Positions 3,805 through 64,000 of a stretch of 64,000 nucleotides of DNA are shown one piece after another. This DNA is from Eledone cirrhosa (Eukaryota). The DNA is taken from contig CAXHJY010000529.1 of assembly GCA_964016885.1 (NCBI GenBank), positions 39,025-103,024 on the forward strand, written 5' to 3'. Positions within the stretch are counted from its first letter, which is position 1. Every line of letters starts with the position of its first letter. The position numbers and the translations under genes were made by a program. The notes under the pieces are model-generated. The model had not been told where the DNA came from. It saw only the letters and a program-made list of their open reading frames with translations, and ran no database searches.

Positions 3805-4060
3805 TTAAACCACTGGGAGTGAAGGACCCCTAGCCTTTGTCAGGGCATTCTTCTAGGAGAAAGCAACTCAGGAAACTGGGATAACTCCGACATAAAACCT
3901 GCGGCTCAGTAGTTACCGATGATGTTGATCTTTTTTTCTTTTCGGGTTATAGCTACTGTCTCTCAGAGAGTGGGATTGGCTCAGTGCACAGTCTTTCCTC
4001 ACTTTAGGAAAATATCTTCACGCACAGGCATTGCACGATAGAATTAACTAATAATTATTA
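3805..4060 (+). mobile_element. Possible RTE-type LINE 5' UTR fragment
   Basis: gggcattcttctaggagaaagcaactc...taaaacctgcggctcag...ctttcctcacttta resembles RTE 5' UTRs as I recall them. No ORF. Confidence 0.35.
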
Positions 4061-4119
4061 ATAATGGTATATCGTGCAATGGCCATACTCGATAACGAGG
4101 GACCAGCCATCATATATAT

Positions 4120-4975
4120 ATAGTGAAAAATTGAACGGGAACAAAACAGAGAGGCAATACGAACAAAGGTTTATTAATTTCACGCTCTTGAGAGTGGGGT
4201 GGTGGTGGGGAACGACGTTTCGGGCATAAGCCCTTCTTCAGGTGAAAAGTGTGTGGGAAGAGAGTTCAAAGGGTGTGTAGGGGAGTGGTGGAGAGACATA
4301 TAGCAAAAAGGGGGTGAGAGGAAACGGTGCAAATGAAATTAAAAATAAAGGCATGATCAAAATATAATTAAAATGAGGTAAAACAGGTGGTGGAAGGGTG
4401 TGGGGCGTGTAGGGGTGGTGGCGGGTGGAGTGGGGAGAGGGAGACGGGGTGTCCGAGCGGGGAGGGCTGAAGGTGGTGTGTGTGTGTAGGTGTACGTGTG
4501 TATGTGAAAGCAAGGGTTGGGGGAAGAACGGGGTTGCATGTTCAGAAGATGTGTGTGGGATGGGGTGTAGGTCGGAGTGTGCGCGCGTGTGTGGATAGAG
4601 GATTCCGGAGGCTGAATGTGTAAATGTGTGGTGGTACGCACGTGTGTGTGTGGTGTTTATGCGTGTTGTGTATGTTGGTGGCGTGTGGGAAAAATATTTT
4701 TGGGGGGTGTATGTTGGGGGGTGAGTCGTAAAGGTATTTCCGTAAAAAGATGTGGTGGAATGCTGAGTAAAATCCTTGGGATGCGGTAGATTCTCGGGAT
4801 CAAGGTTCACACATGTGTAATCCGTGAAGAGATTGGCCGGAAGATGGGAGATGTGGGGTGCGCGCGCAACAGGAAGTGGTCAGAGGGTCAAGGCAGGAGG
4901 AGGGTTGTGTGTCTGTGTGTGCGGGGAGGTGGTCAGAGAGGCATAGCAGCACTAGGGTAGAATGCTAAGTGAAGA
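4120..4975 (-). mobile_element. 5'-truncated Penelope-like element (PLE) end with a minimal hammerhead
   Basis: Bounded by (TA)n on both sides. Contains the HHR at 4214-4241 and the gcgtgaaattaata tail motif. Visibly homologous to 63420-63618. Confidence 0.65.
4214..4241 (-). ncRNA. Minimal type-I hammerhead ribozyme
   Basis: Minus strand reads CTGAAGA-A-GGGC-TTAT-GCCC-GAAAC-GTC: intact core, 4-bp helix II, palindromic ACGT helix III, GUC cleavage triplet. Confidence 0.8.
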
Positions 4976-5225
4976 AAGTATATATATATATATTGACGGG
5001 ACTAGCATAAGGTTTCCCTGCTAGTAGCGGTTGCATCTCAGCGCACTCAATATATATATATGTATGTGTGCGTGTATGTGTGTGTGTATGTATGTGTGTG
5101 TATGTGTATGTGTGTGTGTATGTGTGTAGATAGAGAGAGAGAAATACAATTACATACATGTGACATTCTATTTATTAATTACATAATAAAGAGAAACGTC
5201 ATTTACAGTGAATGGCGATCAAACC

Positions 5226-5530
5226 GAGACATGTAGGTAGAAGACATGTGGGTAGGTAGAAGACCTGTGGGTAGGTAGAAGACTTGTGGGTAGAGGGAGA
5301 CATGTGGGTAGGTAGAAGACTTGTGGGTAGAGGAAGACATGTGGGTAGAGAGAAGACTTGTGGGTAGAGGGAGACATGTGGGTAGAGGGAGATATGTGGG
5401 TAGGTAGAAGACATGTGGGTAGAGGGAGACATGTGGGTAGAGGGAGACATGTGGGTAGGTAGAAGACATGTGGGTAAAGGGAGACATGTGGGTAGGTAGA
5501 AGACATGTGGGTAGAGGGAGACATGTGGGT
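5226..5530. repeat. 18-19-bp minisatellite
   Basis: Units agacatgtgggtagaggg / agacatgtgggtaggtaga. Confidence 0.9.
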
Positions 5531-6034
5531 TGATAAAGACATGTACAAACAGACTGTCAATTTATTGTCGAGTTTCGATTAATTCATAAAGAAAGCAGTC
5601 AATAGGAATTATGACGTCATCCAATTGATCTTTAATCATATTGGGCCATCATTCATTGTCATTCAATACGTATTTGATCACATTAGGTCACCGTTTACAA
5701 TAATTCCGTCCATCATATCGATCTCAATTATTATTTTAATATAGTACATACTTTATTGATTTGTAGTTATTGAACCTCTACATTAATCGATAAAAAAGAG
5801 GTTTTTAAATATCATAAACACAGACACATCCATAATCAGTTACCTGCAGGTTTAGGGTCCTTCAGATTTAGGTATTCAGCTCCCTGTACCAAGAGGACTG
5901 AATATAAGTATATACAATTATATAGCCTGTTTGTAGGTCAGACAACAACATTTATGAGAGGCCATATGCCCTGGGTGGTCGGGTGACCCAAGACTGAATG
6001 TCTTTATATAATTGTTTATTGTGCATACAAATAT

Positions 6035-6235
6035 ATAGCCTGCTTGTAGGTCAGAGAACAGCATTTTGGGAGAGGTCATCCGTCCTTGCTAACTTGTTTG
6101 TAGGTCAAACAACAGCATTTTGGGGGAGGTCATCTGTCCTTGCTAACTTGTTTGTAGGTCAAACAACAGCATTTTGGGGGAGGTCATCTGCTCTTAATAA
6201 CTTGTTTGTAGGTCAGACAACAATATTTTGGAGAG
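6035..6235. repeat. 54-bp tandem repeat
   Basis: Unit ttgtttgtaggtcaaacaacagcattttgggggaggtcatctgtccttgctaac. Confidence 0.9.
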
Positions 6236-6928
6236 ACCTTTGTGGATCTGTGAGGGCTCCTCAGTTAACCTTAGATATTCAGTTCACTGTAACAGAATGA
6301 TTGAACACCTTATATATAATACTATATGTATCTGTTACCTATCTTAAACCGCCTTAACCTTAATATAGTAACTTGTCTTTATAATTCTTCTTTCATCCGA
6401 CACCTTTGTGGTAAATAAAAAGAAAAATCGTCATCGACATTATTAGTACCAGTAACAAACTGGGGTCGGTTTAATCGACTTTCCCGTCCCCAAAATTGCT
6501 GGCCTTGTGCCCAAATCTGAAACCTGTATTAGTATTAGTATTAATCGTATTATGGTTCTACATGATAGTATTTCATATTTCATTCATGACACGGATAAAT
6601 AGATAGAGAGAGAGTGAGAGAGAGTGAGAGAGAGAGTGAGAGAGAGTGAGAGAGAGAGAGAGAGTGAGAGATAATAAAGATAAGAGAATGTTAAAGTTAA
6701 AGTGAAGGGGAAAAAATAGTCACGAAGCAATTTAACAGATTGAGAGGAGTGGTGGGAGGAGGTGTCGTTAGAGAAGAGGGGTGGGGAGTGTCAGAGGAGG
6801 GGGTTGGGGGATAGAGAGGGGAGGGGAGGGGGAGCGGTATGTGGGAGGAGGAGGGAGGCATGCAGGAAAGGAAATGTTGTAAGATTAATGAATAATGTAT
6901 ATAAAACAAAAACGAAGCTAATTGCGGA

Positions 6929-6951
6929 TAGTAGTAGTAGTAGTAGCATAA

Positions 6952-7005
<54 letters not shown>

Positions 7006-7006
7006 C

Positions 7007-7050
<44 letters not shown>

Positions 7051-7098
7051 CATAATAGTAGTAGTAGTAGTAGTAGCATAATAGTAGTAGTAGCATAA

Positions 7099-7140
<42 letters not shown>

Positions 7141-7395
7141 CAGTAATAGTAGTAGTAGCAGTAGTAGTAGCATAATAGTAGTAGTAGTAGTAGTAGTAGT
7201 AGTAATAGTAGTAGTAGTAATAGTAGTAGTAGCAGTAATAGTAGTAGTAGTAGTAATAGTAGTAGTAGTAGTAATAGTAGTAGTAATAGTAGTAGTAGTA
7301 GTAATAGTAGTAGTAGCAGTAATAGTAGTAGTAGTAGTGTAGAGTGGTAGTAGTAGTAGTAGTAGCAGTAGTGAGAATGTGAAATAGTAGTAGTG
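6929..7395. repeat. (TAG)n microsatellite
   Basis: Directly visible. Confidence 0.98.
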
Positions 7396-7675
7396 GTTAT
7401 GTGGTTCTATTTAGATATAAATGTTTCCGGACATCGTTAAAGAACGAACCTATATGTACTCACTTGACCTGCTAGAAATAGCAGTCAAATCTCGACTTCC
7501 ACTAAACCATCATAGAAAAAAATGTTTGGTTTAATTGAAATAGTGTTGTCCTGGAAACGAGGACTGACTATGAAGGAGTGATGCTAGAGTTGTAAAATCT
7601 TGAATGCACCAATTTCAACTTATCTTATTAATAACTGCATTGTTTCTTTCCAGGGACTATGTTGAAAAATAACCC

Positions 7676-7963
7676 TCATTTGGTCATTCCATGAGAATAT
7701 CTTGGTCAGCCTATGAAATTTTTAAAAAATAAATTTCATTTCGTCATTCCATGAGAGTATCTTGGTCAGCCTATGAAATTTTTAAAAAATAAATTTCATT
7801 TCGTCATTCCATGAGAATATCTTGGTCAGCCTATGAAATTTTTAAAAAATAAATTTCATTTCGTCATTCCATGAGAGTATCTTGGTCAGCCTATGAACCT
7901 TTTAAAAAGTATACTTCATTTGGTCATTCCATGAGAGTATCTTGGTCAGCCTATGAAATTTTT
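7676..7963. repeat. 60-bp tandem repeat (~4.8 copies)
   Basis: gtcattccatgagaatatcttggtcagcctatgaaatttt recurs on consecutive 60-nt lines. Confidence 0.95.
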
Positions 7964-8960
7964 AGCCGACCCATGTACACTATGTGTAAAGGAAAAAAAT
8001 TCAGGAGGATCGTGGCTTGAATTTCCCGCTTAAATTTGAACCTTACAATGAACCGATGTTAAAATAATATAAGTTACAATGTAAACCTCAAGTAAGTGTT
8101 ATGTTTCTAAACAGAACGGAGTGAAACTACGAAGAAATGTTTAAATATTCGGCTGGATTACGTTACAGCGCCATCTGCCACTCTTCCTACGGATGTATTC
8201 AGTTAAAGGCGTCACATTTATTTAAACATTTGAAACAAGAAGCTGAAGAAGTCATTTAAAATTTTGTTTCTCGTGGATGTTTTTGAAAAGTTCAAGAAAC
8301 GATCTAATTAGTATCCATAGCACTTGCACAGCAGACAAATCAGCAAGTACTGAGACATCACGGCTGCATTGGAATTTCAAACACCATTCAAGGGTTTCAT
8401 AGAAAGGTAAATATCAACTAAGTCTTTTACATCTGTCGCCGACAAGGATACGAAAAACGATACTACAAACCAACTACCGCTGATCTCCAAGGGTTCTCTG
8501 ACACCACAACTAGATAGGAATTGGCAGCAACTATATATATATATCAAACTAAACAAATCAAGTTTGTGCTAGTACGCCGAAATTTCTCACTCAGTGGGAC
8601 GGGGGTGTATTTTTGTTAAGAGGTGCCTACTGACTGTAGGTTTCGCTTTGTACTTAGGCAAGGCGGGTCTTATATATACTAATAATAAATGTGAAGACTA
8701 AAATCCAAAGAGGGCTCGATAAGGATAAATATATATCAAATATATAAGAAACTTAGAGCAAATATTTATTAAAATAACAGATTAAAGTTTAAGCAAAGAA
8801 TCGCTGCTTTCACCCTTAACGGGAGTTTCAGACGATCCCGTTAAGGGTGAAAGCAGCGATTCTTTGCTTAAACTTTAATCTGTTATTTTAATATATATAT
8901 ATCTATATATATATATATATATATAACGTTGTGACAGATAACTCCATTAATTCGGGAATC

Positions 8961-9053
8961 CACAAGTCTGATGAGCTAGCGATTCCAGAGTCAGGCATGA
9001 TCACTCCTGATCGTACCTTGAGTTGATCGATCGTGAAACGCGCGTCGCGTGTG
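8961..9053 (+). ncRNA. Hammerhead ribozyme with expanded (60-nt) domain II
   Basis: CACAAGT-CTGATGA(8968)-60 nt-GAAAC-GCGC-GTC-GCGTGTG. Helix I pairs 6/7 counting G-U, helix III is the palindrome ACGCGCGT, and AATAAA follows immediately. Confidence 0.6.
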
Positions 9054-10845
9054 AATAAACACAATGATGTTATGTTGATACTTCTTTCCTACTCCATATA
9101 TGTGTGTGTGCGTGTGTGTACAATATATATATATATGTATATAATAGAATATAACCTATAATACACCACACGCACCCACATTTATATCTGTGTCTTGTTT
9201 ATATATATATATGTATCGTACTAAAGTTATAATTAGCCGTTTACACTCTACTAAGACCAATTATAAATAACAAATAAAAAAGAGCCAACCGGTGTAAAAC
9301 AAGTTACAAACGTCACCCCATAATATGCCCGGAGAACAAATATCAATGTTAATATGTCTGTACCAACAAGCTGAATCACTGATAACAATGATTAATAATG
9401 TTAAAAACTGACTAAAATTCCGGTTTGAAAATAAAAAATATTAAAAGCAGATGTCTAGACGAATTAATTTATAAAATAATAAAACATTTGTCTTAAACGT
9501 AACCAGCGATTATAAGACTGTAGAAGCAGCTTTTAATGTGTATTTGTGTTTGTGTGAAAGTGCGTGTGTGTGTGTGTGTGTGTTTTTGTTTGTTTGTTTG
9601 TTTGTTGAAATTTTATAGCTGGAGTTGTAATAATGGAAAGTAGTGTAATAATTATTATAAGAGGCAACCGAAATTTATAGCTAAATCAAACCGGTTATCC
9701 ACTAGAATTGGTTTACCATACAGATATAGTCATTATAATTTAAAATTGATAGCTATATGCTGTAAGACTTGTAGCTGAGTGGTTAGAGAATTGGATTCAC
9801 TACCGCGAGGTAGTGAATATGATTCCCAGCTCGAGCGATGCGTTATGTTCTTGAACAAGATACTTTATTTTACGTTGCTTTTTTCTGCCAGGAGTTGCGA
9901 CAGGGAGATTGTATAAGTATATTGGAAAGACTAATGGACACATTGTTTCATTGATCCAATCTGACGAGTTCCACTCCACTCGGTATACGAATGAAGTCTG
10001 GGGTCTTGTCGTTCATTGGTGGATGTACAGATATGCTGTAACATTTTCTAAGAGTTCATTTATCAGTGGTTCTCTTGCATAAAATCACGTAGACTTCATT
10101 CTAGGTTCTAGTAGGTAATGACGTCATTCCATTCCCAAAACTATGTAGATTACGAGGTAGCATTTTCCGCCTTTTTCTTAGCTGCGTTCCAAAAGAAACA
10201 GGCGTGCTTATGGCACCGGATATTGAAATTATTGGTAATTACCTCAATGTGTTCCTTCTGCGTGGCTAAGGTATTAACAAAATATATTTATACAGTTCTA
10301 TTTACTCTTTTATCTGTTCCAGCCATCCGGCTGAGGCCATGCTGGGGTACCGCCCTTATTTAGTTATGAAAGTTTAGACAATTTCAATTATCATTATTAT
10401 TTCTGTTAATTATTTAATTCAACCAAATTAGACGAAGCAACAATATTCAGGGCTGGATTAGGTACGACAGAGATAGTTTCAGGTTATTTCTATTAGATAT
10501 TCCTTGTATGTATTTATGTCGTAAATATACCTCGGTCCTAGGTGGAGCTACTGTAGAGATTCTTAAAGTGGGCGCTACAACCCCCCCCCCCCGGGTGAGA
10601 AGCTCCAGGGGGCCCCGTAAAAATGATATAATAGTATATTAAATATCAATCGATACATATTACAGTAAAATTCCGTTATAACGAAATTCACGTGGTATAA
10701 AAAAAATTCGCTGTAACGAAAAATTCTTCATAACAAGATCAACCTAACACATTGAACGTGTGTGTGGTCGGGGGGGGGGGATTTCATTTAGACATTATAG
10801 TATCTATATATATATATATATATATAGACACTATAATGTCTAAAT

Positions 10846-15550: not shown

Positions 15551-15940
15551 TAACCAACTTCTGAATAATAATTAACCATATACAATGTATGTAGTTAAGA
15601 TTTCTAAATAATAATAATAATAATAAAACCGTAATTATATTATCTTAAGTTTACCCTAACCTTCAAATATTCGCTGTATTCTTGTATAAATATTACAATT
15701 GAATTATGTCACCAAACGTATGAGTGCCATGTAAATTAATGTGAACATTTAAGATATTCCTTATGACATATTTAATAATGTATTCGTCATATACTTCCCT
15801 ACACGGAATCGGAGGGGGGGGGGGGTAAATATTTATTCGCTGACGAGGATGCAATAACGTCGGAAATGCTTTATGTAACTTGTCTTTGTAATGCCCCCCC
15901 ACCCCATTCGGTGCCCTAGTGGAAAATATAAGAAATCTTT

Positions 15941-32772: not shown

Positions 32773-32801
32773 CTGATGAAAGGACTGGCGTCCGAAACGT
32801 T
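32773..32801 (+). ncRNA. Minimal type-I hammerhead ribozyme in a PLE end
   Basis: CTGATGA-AA-GGAC-TGGC-GTCC-GAAAC-GTT, followed by gcgtaaaaccaata and then a TA/CA tract. Confidence 0.75.
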
Positions 32802-41337: not shown

Positions 41338-42544
41338 GCTATATTACAACTTGTTTCTTATCTCTTCTTGCCGTTCATTATTAGGTTTTAGGATTAGTGT
41401 TATTATTATTCTTTATTTTTCTATTTTATTGCTACTCTATATTCCCCTACCGCCGCCTCCTCCCACCACCTCTGCCACCAACATTTCACTCATTTTTGTT
41501 ATGATTCTTTTTCTTTCTTGTTTTCTTTATATATTTTTTTCTGTTGGTTTATTTATTTTTCCTTCAGTGACCTCTTTCCTCGTCTGATGAACGAGCGATC
41601 AGGCCGAAAATTGCCTGGGAATGTCAAGGCTATGGAATAGTAGTGAGAAACAGGAGAGAGAGAGAGAGGTGAGGAGAGAGAGAGAGACTGAGGAGAGATG
41701 TGAGGCGAAAGAGAGAGATGGGAGGCATAAAGAGGTGATGGAAGAGAGATGAGGCGGGAAGAGAGGTGAGAGAGAGGTGAGAGAGAGGTGAGGTGGGGGA
41801 GGTTATATAGAGCAAAGAGAATATTTGTTTAAAGAGAAAAGAAAACAGGACGGGAGGAGATGGTAGTGGTGGGGGGAAAGAGACAAGTGAGTAAAGAATG
41901 AAATAGAGGAAAGGAGAGAGAGAGAGTGTGTGTGTGTGAATTAAAAAGAAGACCCGTTAGCAGATGGAATCGTTTAGTACCTACACAAATACACACACAC
42001 ACCCAGTAACACCCACATTCATTTGTATTTAAACTGTATCTATCAAGGCAACCCTTTTCCCCCCACAAAAACAACAAACAAAAAGCACAGTAATCCACCA
42101 CCATCACCACCTACCAACCATATCTCTCTCTCTCGTTTTTTCTCTTCTCTTTCAAATCCAACACGCTTTATATAAACATAGGACGGTAGTAGAAAAAAAT
42201 AAAGAAAAAAAAAACAAAAAAACTACGCCGACATCGTCACCTTCACAATCGTTATAGTTATAACCCGATGTTATTAATATCCGCTTATATTATAATGAAA
42301 AAGCCAAACAAAGACAGCCAAGTTTCTGTCGATCAGTAAAATAAAAAAAATAAAAAAAAAGACGTTATCGAATCTAGTTTGTATTTAGACGAGAGAGAGA
42401 AAGATAGGAAACCTCAGCGTAACCTAGGCTAGTAGGAAGATAAAGAGGAAAAAAACCGGCGACGTATTGAATGAAATTAGTTGTCCTTAACAAAGAGGTC
42501 ATCACCGCTGATGGAACAGACAGTAGGTTGGTTCTAGTTGTCCA

Positions 42545-44305: not shown

Positions 44306-44353
<48 letters not shown>

Positions 44354-44591
44354 AGGGAGTGTAACGTGGAGTTACTGTAGGTTCACCCGGGTGAGCACTC
44401 AATGTTTAGGTTCACTTCAGTGTCGAGGTGTAGAGCTAGACAGAGTGTATTATATTGAAAAGATAGGGTAAGATAGGTAAAGAATCGGGTTAGGTCGATA
44501 CAGATCGAACCTTGAGCTGATCAGTGGCGAAACGCGCGTCACCTGCCAATAAATGTAATGAAGGAGTAACCAATCGTCCTTGTTATCCTTT

Positions 44592-44650
<59 letters not shown>

Positions 44651-50217: not shown

Positions 50218-50272
50218 ACTGCTTTATATTTCGATGATAGCCATTGAGTGGCTATGACCTCATCAGGCAGTT
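50218..50272 (-). ncRNA. Hammerhead ribozyme in a PLE-like end
   Basis: Minus strand: ACTGC-CTGATGA-GGTC-ATAGCCA-CTCAA-TGGCTAT-CATC-GAAAT-ATA-AA-GCAGT, then AATAAA. Perfect 7-bp hairpin in helix II. Helix I is offset by 2 nt. Confidence 0.65.
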
Positions 50273-63421: not shown

Positions 63422-63618
63422 CTTTTTAATTTTTTCCTTCCCCTCAAATTCCCTCCCCCCTTTTAATGGCTTTCCACAACTCCCCCTCACACCCTCGGAA
63501 CTCTTCTCCTGATGAAGGGCTTATGCCCGAAACGCCGTCCCCCACCCCCTACTCTCAAGCGTGAACCTAATACTAACACTTTGCACTGCACTCTTCGTTA
63601 TTGTTTTTTGTTTTAACC
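63420..63618 (+). mobile_element. PLE 3' end, same family as 4120-4975
   Basis: Shared actcccc..cacaccct..gaactct upstream block, HHR and ctctcaagcgtgaacctaata motif. Ends in (TA)n. Confidence 0.65.
63509..63536 (+). ncRNA. Minimal hammerhead with a mutated cleavage triplet (GCC)
   Basis: CTGATGA-A-GGGC-TTAT-GCCC-GAAAC-GCC. Same helix II as the copy at 4214-4241. Confidence 0.7.
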
Positions 63619-63689
63619 TATATATATATATATTTTAATATCTGTTATATATATATAACAGATCTAGCTGTCGAAGCGGCCGGAGCTCA

Positions 63690-63758
<69 letters not shown>

Positions 63759-63840
63759 GCCCCGACCGCTTCGACAGCTAGATCTGTTATATATATATAA
63801 CAGATCTAGCTGTGAGAAAAGTTGCTCCGAACGAACTGTC

Positions 63841-63931
63841 CGTGTCCGAAGGAACCTGCAGCCGTAGAATCAGCCAGATCCATACAGTGATCATGTATCG
63901 AGCTACCTGCCGGCGAAACAATTGTAACACG
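63841..63931 (+). ncRNA. Hammerhead-like motif with expanded (61-nt) domain II and a variant core
   Basis: CGTGT-CCGAAGGA-61 nt-GAAAC-AATT-GTA-ACACG. Perfect 5-bp helix I, palindromic ACAATTGT helix III, AATAAA at 63933. Confidence 0.5.
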
Positions 63932-64000
63932 CAATAAACTGAGTCCAGATGCATCACTGATTTTTCGTTTTTTTATACTATATATATATATATATATATA

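Follow-up and report, generated by a model that had tools for sequence, protein, structure and literature searches.

Between positions 8961 and 9059 of a 64,000-nt stretch of the Eledone cirrhosa genome (here called the window), a CUGAUGA element, a 60-nt domain II, the sequence GAAAC-GCGC-GUC and AAUAAA follow each other in this order. Which kind of RNA is this, from which element does it derive, and does it serve for cutting or for something else? In the numbering used for hammerhead ribozymes the 5' core reads C3 U4 G5 A6 N7 G8 A9, and the 3' core consists of G12 A13 A14 A15.1 and the U16.1-H17 triplet. We consider it very probable that the segment is a type I hammerhead motif at the 3' end of a Penelope-like retrotransposon (PLE).

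Hammerhead copies in the window

The features of this copy and of two further ones are compiled in Table 1. An initial annotation of the window had described CTGATGA at 8968 and GAAAC-GCGC-GTC at 9035-9046 as exactly 60 nt apart and closed by a helix I. Both statements hold: the spacer is 8975-9034, and 6 of the 7 positions of helix I pair (8961-8967 with 9047-9053), with one A.G mismatch and a U.G wobble adjoining the core. The nested GATC hairpins proposed for domain II were not recovered, as it folds into a single unbranched rod with bulges. Correctly observed, too, were the AATAAA within 8 nt of the triplet in all three copies (7, 6 and 7 nt) and the TA tract some 40 nt later, which lies 36–40 nt past AATAAA and begins at 9096 in the 8961 copy. 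The 3' half plus AATAAA occurs three times in the window, compared with a mean of 0.025 and a maximum of 1 in 200 dinucleotide-preserving resamplings. By fold energy the whole stretch 8955-9060 is no better than its shuffles (z -1.0, 33/200); domain II alone reaches z -1.9 (5/200). The 8961 copy is an old, truncated insertion without an ORF and probably inert.

Table 1. Positions of the hammerhead copies and their parts in the window
Feature	Position	Strand	Remarks
Family A copy, very probable 3'-end remnant of a Penelope-like element	8926..9095	+	5'-truncated, between (TA)n tracts; 5' limit approximate
Helix I, 5' strand	8961..8967	+	Window sequence, covariation
Intact hammerhead 5' core C3-A9	8968..8974	+	CUGAUGA (CTGATGA in DNA)
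60-nt domain II	8975..9034	+	Covarying 8-9 bp basal helix, bulge, conserved inner motif, GAUC/GAUC apical hairpin
Inner motif, 5' strand	8986..8995	+	YAG-AR-UC-RG; mean agreement 0.89 over 14 groups
Inner motif, 3' strand	9016..9025	+	CUYGA-G-CUR; mean agreement 0.89 over 14 groups
3' core GAAA, palindrome and GUC triplet	9035..9046	+	GAAAC-GCGC-GUC; predicted cut after 9046
8-nt palindrome	9038-9045	+	Predicted dimer helix III
Helix I, 3' strand	9047..9053	+	
AAUAAA	9054..9059	+	Kept across subfamilies, downstream of predicted cut
Terminal segment	9060..9095	+	Element ends 49 nt past predicted cut, at TA tract
Family B copy (young Hydra-clade family)	63812..63978	+	Ends 52 nt past predicted cut
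Family B copy, helix I	63841-63845 with 63927-63931	+	
Family B copy, variant 5' core	63846-63853	+	CCGAAGGA
Family B copy, 61-nt domain II	63854-63914	+	
Family B copy, GAAAC-AAUU-GUA	63915-63926	+	GAAAC-AATT-GTA in DNA
Family B copy, AAUAAA	63933-63938	+	
Family C copy	44482..44592	+	Truncated inside domain II, inner motif retained
Family C copy, GAAAC-GCGC-GUC	44529-44540	+	
Family C copy, AAUAAA	44548-44553	+	
Inverted tail and 3' end of family C	44352..44467	-	Joined to the truncated copy, typical PLE 5' inversion; limits approximate

The copy at 63841 had been credited with the same layout. This is true for helix I, the 61-nt insert and the 3' core, but CUGANGA is missing; its core is CCGAAGGA, i.e., U4C plus one additional base after A6, which is the state of family B (25 of 30 copies). 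The copy had also been called unrelated-looking; it is in fact homologous, having the inner motif of domain II in common with the others and falling into one tree with them. In the third copy, at about 44490, the 5' core is indeed absent, yet not by loss of the core as such: truncation has removed its 5' part, and an inverted tail adjoins it. Relatives of this copy carry CTGACGA or CCGTCGA.

Some further observations concern the surroundings of these copies. The 3' strand of domain II contains a CUGAUC (9023-9028, and equivalents in family C) that is one change short of a second 5' core, and single mutations in it account for many short-insert matches. A near-perfect, MITE-like inverted repeat of ~83 bp (8798-8880) lies just upstream of the 8961 copy, and another inverted repeat (63640-63812), enclosing a long (TA)n tract, immediately upstream of the family B copy. 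Other repeat families contribute hammerhead-like motifs of short or minimal form at 4218-4241 (-), 63509-63532 (+), 32773-32797 (+), 41584-41609 (+), 15840-15866 (+) and 50229-50266 (-), the last with a 27-nt domain II followed by AAUAAA; CUGANGA...GAAA has 11 matches in the window, 2.9 being expected.

Copies and families in the genome

The initial annotation had proposed a genome-wide search with a long helix II. In the 3.0 Gb genome a descriptor with a 54-66 nt insert gave 4,007 exact intact-core matches and none in the reversed control. Inserts of 24-53 nt were matched 630 times (control 3) and those of 4-23 nt 134 times (control 2), many of the latter being decayed or deleted long copies. 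Thus the long class makes up 4,007 of the 4,771 intact-core matches, inserts up to 66 nt counted. When the pattern relied on the inner motif and fixed only C3 and G5 of the 5' core, the number rose to 9,857, again with a control of 0. A first look by homology yielded 1,694, 1,860 and 1,828 candidates for the three window copies, 40 of which were scored for each.

Among 112 distinct instances ~14 clusters can be recognized, family B contributing 40 instances. Family A is old, its copies differing by 12% from the commonest letter, and family B is young (2%). Model R1 scores the window copies at 92, 69 and 59 bits, the first two being part of its training set. The supposition that existing searches miss this motif proved right: at gathering score Rfam has 0 matches in the 64-kb window, no hammerhead family is found among 98 Rfam matches at E<=1 in 8 loci, and the motif is absent from the list of Hydra-clade hammerheads as far as published with PMC8557442. 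In other organisms the motif pattern produced 6 metagenome matches, none of them convincing under R1 (best 20.9 bits, with a broken 3' core), and 0 matches in viral contigs.

Other hammerhead-like motifs of this genome possess unrelated long rods as domain II (L223:4199-4322 (+), L220:6245-6372 (-), L224, L163, L165:1495-1585 and L169:1495-1575). Rods of ~96 nt (with a U4C core) and 91 nt follow Hydra-like ORFs; the others measure 31-36 nt or belong to a 47-nt and a 38-nt family, of which the 47-nt family is common among the 24-53 nt insert matches; the fold z is -2.5 for L220 and -3.4 for L169. It seems that domain II has been lengthened repeatedly in this genome.

Structure and covariation

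For the analysis of structure 43 of the 112 instances were aligned, picked to cover the clusters, and the structure was set by hand. In this alignment, in which kinship among the copies inflates all covariation measures, pairing cells amount to 81%, compared with 72% in shuffles (0/500) and 29-36% when the structure was slid, and double-change cells to 162, compared with 66 (0/500); two of the five measures fall within the shuffle range (41 and 48 of 500). Double changes are found in helix I at 6 of 7 pairs, in domain II at 13 of 23 and in the palindrome at 2 of 4. Examples are the helix I pair 11-97 (AU 18 / GC 16), the palindrome pair 89-92 (AU 22 / GC 15) and the basal helix II pair 25-79 (UA 16 / GC 14 / CG 5). 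Moreover, palindrome and triplet changed in concert, GCGC going with GUC in one branch and AAUU or AUAU with GUA in the other. Covariation was seen in helix I, at the 8-9 bp base of helix II and in the palindromic helix III, the arms of a layout that is open at helix I; for helix I this had been named beforehand as a check across genomic copies. A conserved CUGANGA had been named as well. It is retained whole in 17 of 29 family A copies fetched by homology, but not in family B nor in 60 of the first 100 relaxed matches listed.

All 43 copies, having been selected by pattern, carry a 3' core, with GUA as cleavage triplet in 23, GUC in 19 and GUU in 1; the palindrome is a perfect 8-mer in 30. 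Conservation of the core is circular in the pattern-selected clusters; in family A the 3' core columns are kept in 25-28 of 28 copies. The core-compatible fold lies 6.2 kcal/mol above the minimum-energy fold in the window copy, as it does in the median of the 43 copies, and the palindrome duplex (-3 to -13 kcal/mol) offsets this penalty in 28 of 43.

Could the motif be a chance arrangement, or something other than a hammerhead, for instance a simple hairpin repeat or an RNA of the box C/D kind? Family A has UGAUGA and a downstream CUGA, and in several copies the whole motif folds no better than shuffles. However, clusters 3, 4 and B lack the CUGA, position 7 is as free as a hammerhead N7, the three-helix layout covaries and the controls of the genome searches were 0. 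This explanation is largely refuted and we regard it as extremely improbable. Inspecting the alignment of the 43 copies by eye, we also dismissed the box C/D and kink-turn readings.

In this lineage domain II is 57-63 nt long and keeps its inner motif. Over the 14 groups the mean agreement is 0.89 in the inner motif, 0.71 in basal helix II, 0.61 in helix I and 0.48 in loop III, and the identity between groups is 45-90%. The inner motif AGAGUC/GAGCU is conserved in sequence and not by covariation. Since the inner helices are nearly invariant, their pairing is predicted, with little support from covariation; RNAalifold recovered just 6 basal pairs. One might therefore think of the inner motif as DNA, i.e., a promoter element or an endonuclease site in a pseudo-LTR, with the surrounding hammerhead decaying. 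Such a role would agree with conservation by sequence, and PLE pseudo-LTRs are described as containing promoters (PMC6765202). Against it stand the fixed place of the motif within a covarying RNA helix and a few inner changes that preserve pairs (33-74, CG to UA; 40-67, AU/GU/GC), and we find it very improbable.

Changes in the 5' core

Among the first 100 of the 9,857 relaxed matches, sorted by eye, 40 have an intact CUGANGA and 60 a deviant core: 14 have U4C alone, 25 have A6U (24 of them also U4C), 12 have an extra base after A6 and 9 differ otherwise. Trees were built with the 5' core left out, from 39 rows including the mis-hit L011 and from 36 rows without it (134 columns, midpoint root). 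In both main branches the intact cores are placed toward the root and the variants toward the tips. A single origin is rejected for the CCGUCGA core (p-AU 3e-81) and for all deviant cores together (p-AU 3e-38), the groups for these AU tests having been named after the listing was seen. In single copies CpG decay can turn CCG into CTG, which blurs the direction of change. Judged from the aligned copies, the deviant 5' cores have at least two separate origins.

All four bases (U, C, G, A) occur freely at position 7, as expected of N7 in a hammerhead, and in most variants G8, A9 and the GAAA half are still present. Because of this persistence we read the core change as attenuation and not as loss. 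U4C and an A6a insertion are reported as natural low-activity hammerhead variants, U4C being tolerated in vivo in a viroid (PMC3088659), and it is changes of these types (U4C, A6a) that the young families carry. By analogy the variant cores would have a lowered activity. In both CCGUCGA lineages (L249-L251, L112, L261) we noted by eye that the new CGUC could pair with the GGCG running into G12, a pairing that would seal the junction and prevent the active fold.

The parent element

Walking upstream from family B leads to an ORF with an RT followed by a GIY-YIG EN (translations of L086 and L082). It contains DKT, CxCX5C, CxxC and CxH, of which the last two flank the E and N of the EN; the EN is C-terminal and the target of family B is (TA)n. 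DKT in place of DKG, the CxCX5C linker and CxxC/CxH at the EN are marks of the Hydra clade (PMC8557442). In 6 of 8 long family B loci the motif is found on the same strand 1.5-3.1 kb downstream of the EN, and an intact-core copy of cluster 3 lies 1.7 kb downstream of an EN that is 62% identical to that of family B (L238/L240). Thus, family B and cluster 3 are located downstream of Hydra-clade Penelope-like ORFs.

Searches of the ORF in Pfam and PDB gave no match, and it was recognised by its motifs and homologues. The protein search with the RT found 16 homologues at 26-53% identity, the named ones in Argonauta and Octopus at 43-49%; among viral and prokaryote contigs RT queries found no relative, and the search with the EN alone returned nothing. 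Further traits of the Hydra clade are an N-terminal RWK motif, the lack of CCHH and a length below 3 kb. Family B copies are 5'-truncated before RWK, which homologues P0009-P0011 carry, and because of the long 3' UTR the family B elements exceed 3 kb. This UTR (1.5-3 kb) is rich in microsatellites and far longer than in the Hydra elements as published in PMC8557442, and in the ORF (L082:3057-4808 (+), L081) long low-complexity insertions separate RT thumb, linker and EN. Further traits of PLE copies are present: 5' truncation, an inverted partner on the 5' side (L081, L083, L084, L088), an optional tail and, in L086, a same-strand upstream copy as a partial tandem layout.

For family A, to which the 8961 copy belongs, we infer membership in the Hydra-clade Penelope-like elements from the shared motif, the tree and the same pattern of truncation, inversion and tail. 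Its copies are old and truncated, and a walk of ~450 nt upstream past the query found no ORF in register. Hydra-like ORFs occur near family A copies at L213, L219 and L202, none of them followed by a family A end. Likewise, tying copies of family A and clusters 2, 4 and 6 to neighbouring ORFs failed, these ORFs belonging mostly to other Hydra families with ends of their own.

Three other assignments were considered and dropped. Half cores of hammerheads have been flagged in octopus and squid Naiads, in which the EN precedes the RT (Craig et al., PMC8557442); a Naiad origin was rejected as the EN is C-terminal here and not N-terminal. The label Neptune was replaced by Hydra on account of DKT and CxCX5C. 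A non-LTR retrozyme was discarded, since the loci read contain single copies or inverted pairs and no tandem array of short units.

Ends of the copies

The window copies end 49 (A), 52 (B) and 52 nt (C) past the predicted cut. This distance recurs: of the 30 family B copies examined, 25 have their end at 52 nt (range 47-57) and the other 5 continue into a tail of about 80 nt, and among the 112 instances the 53 with a TA tract within 75 nt have a median of 52 (10-90% range 50-58). In clusters 2-5 and 13 the instances with a TA tract no more than 75 nt away end at 47-54 nt; in clusters 6, 8-12 and 14 the ends are more scattered or lack a near TA tract. The sequence past AAUAAA differs between the two main branches, so it is the spacing that is kept and not the letters. 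In most of the subfamilies measured the ends lie ~52 nt past the cut site, from which it follows that the templates were uncut and had read through AAUAAA.

The initial annotation had suspected a coupling of self-cleavage to 3' processing. This we could not substantiate: the cut lies upstream of AAUAAA and the copies run ~52 nt past the site. With this order, cleavage would strip AAUAAA from the ORF-bearing RNA, and one may ask whether the motif is a switch between cleavage and polyadenylation, in which a cut 6-8 nt upstream of AAUAAA removes the poly(A) signal, lowers expression and is tuned by domain II. AAUAAA adjoins helix I in all clusters with an agreement of 0.93 (partly selected by the pattern), family B has a U-rich stretch after it, and the Clec2 hammerhead offers a precedent (PMC6765202). 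The copies, however, end in the (TA)n target or an 80-150 nt tail and not in poly(A), their templates read through the signal, and the fixed spacing of ~52 nt would be left unexplained. We therefore judge such a switch improbable.

If cut products were the templates for insertion, 5' junctions should accumulate at the cut site. In family C, counted by eye and in small numbers, no pile-up is seen there, and the two following positions have junctions at a similar frequency: ~8 of 15 non-C matches at the cut site join foreign DNA, and at each of the next two positions ~4 foreign junctions occur per 100 listed of 172. These counts are without a denominator, as the fixed first letter of the patterns left out unmutated full copies. 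Cut products as insertion templates were rejected, there being no clear excess at the site in these counts.

Comparison with known hammerheads

With the hammerheads of the Hydra clade as presented in PMC8557442 the lineage shares the ORF motifs, the (TA)n target, a sense-strand type I motif near the 3' end, a palindromic stem III and, in many cases, one additional base on either side where the core meets stem II. It differs from them in its domain II of 57-63 nt, its 3' UTRs of 1.5-3 kb and the deviant cores of young families. For the Hydra-clade hammerheads, Hydra-1_Obim included, File S2 of that study (Craig et al. 2021, PMC8557442) gives a stem II of 3-7 bp and loops of 3-10 nt; Hydra-1_Obim itself has 7 bp and an 8-nt loop. 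The minimal PLE hammerheads (Cervera and de la Pena 2014, PMC4209133) are likewise of type I, with a short helix I, a palindromic helix III implying dimers, a basal helix II of 7-8 bp, and truncated single copies and inverted pairs, but the text of that paper, descriptor figures aside, describes no long domain II for them.

A domain II of ~50 nt does exist in PLE-X1_sMoe and PLE-X1_sTam from Selaginella (PMC8557442, File S2). These elements, in contrast, are EN-minus, rDNA-targeting and Chlamys-related, and their sequences as listed there have neither AGAGUC/GAGCU nor the palindromic 8-mer. The claim of the initial annotation that this is a distinct hammerhead architecture is borne out by the conserved ~60-nt domain II, the covarying helices and the thousands of copies. 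It is to be restricted to distinctness as a Penelope-type architecture, as long domains II are already present in PLE-X1 and in other families of this genome (31-96 nt).

Outside these clades, the hammerhead of PAc (Poseidon, Anolis) needs protein, its core mutants still insert, and the RT starts inside the RNA (Frangieh et al. 2024, PMC11167929). Like PAc, our copies have two 3' ends past the hammerhead, with and without tail, an AT-rich target and an uncut RNA template; unlike them, PAc belongs to another clade and has a standard domain II, and here the tail is 80-150 nt long and the main end ~52 nt from the cut. The discontinuous hammerhead of Clec2 (PMC6765202) also has a large insertion within the ribozyme and a cut between stop codon and poly(A) signal, but the Clec2 insertion comprises hundreds of nt in one host gene, and here we deal with a structured, conserved 60-nt arm in a transposon. 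In the PLE and hammerhead literature covered (including passages of PMC13725137, PMC13282606 and bioRxiv 10.64898/2026.07.22.740005) no description of this architecture was found. The novelty lies in the conserved ~60-nt arm together with the repeated attenuation of the core; the class of PLE hammerheads and long domain II insertions are already known.

Possible function

How could a conserved arm, an attenuated core and a constant distance to the 3' end go together? Our favoured explanation, to which we would give an even chance, is a weak, dimer- or protein-dependent ribozyme whose long arm docks the RT and thereby sets initiation ~52 nt away. The hammerhead would cleave weakly, as a dimer or with the help of protein; the conserved inner motif of domain II would dock the element's reverse transcriptase; and the RT would start copying ~52 nt downstream, on uncut RNA. 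Cleavage as a dimer is suggested by the 8-nt palindrome and by published PLE hammerheads, for which a palindromic helix III is a known sign of dimer dependence (PMC4209133, PMC6765202). Docking of the RT is suggested by the conservation, the spacing and the in vitro work on PAc. As the ~60-nt arm is retained where the core has changed, it is likely to be a docking site for the RT more than part of a cutter. The persistence of G8 and A9 counts against this main mechanism in that it fits continued catalysis.

Continued catalysis would be required if the motif were a fully working dimeric ribozyme, whose cut frees unit-length or circular RNA from tandem read-through transcripts and whose inner motif makes a tertiary contact to helix I that offsets the core changes. 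That is the published model for PLE hammerheads (PMC4209133, PMC6765202). It agrees with the covarying and mostly perfect palindrome, the GUA, GUC and GUU triplets, the lasting G8, A9 and GAAA half, the tolerance of U4C in a viroid (PMC3088659) and the partial tandem layout of L086. It is at odds with the junctions in family C, which by eye show no pile-up at the cut site, with the inverted partners, which outnumber tandem ones and, lying on opposite strands, cannot dimerise in cis, and with the PAc system, where insertion is independent of cleavage (PMC11167929). We hold a fully working dimer to be unlikely.

Returning to the docking of the RT, one may go further and suppose that the hammerhead has turned into a structural RT-docking domain, catalysis having been repeatedly selected down and the CCGUCGA core having arisen twice. 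This stronger version is possible, though doubtful. If true, a ribozyme would here be caught in becoming a scaffold resembling a telomerase RNA, which would explain why PLEs retain hammerheads that cut poorly (PMC4209133).

Conclusion

At least 4,000-10,000 hammerhead-like motifs in a single animal genome escape Rfam and descriptors with a short stem; therefore the counts of hammerheads in invertebrates are probably too low. In Penelope-like elements hammerheads are poor cutters (PMC4209133), and in the sole in vitro system, PAc, insertion does without them (PMC11167929). The lineage described here represents a natural experiment, in which ~14 subfamilies can be compared separately for core, inner motif and distance to the 3' end.
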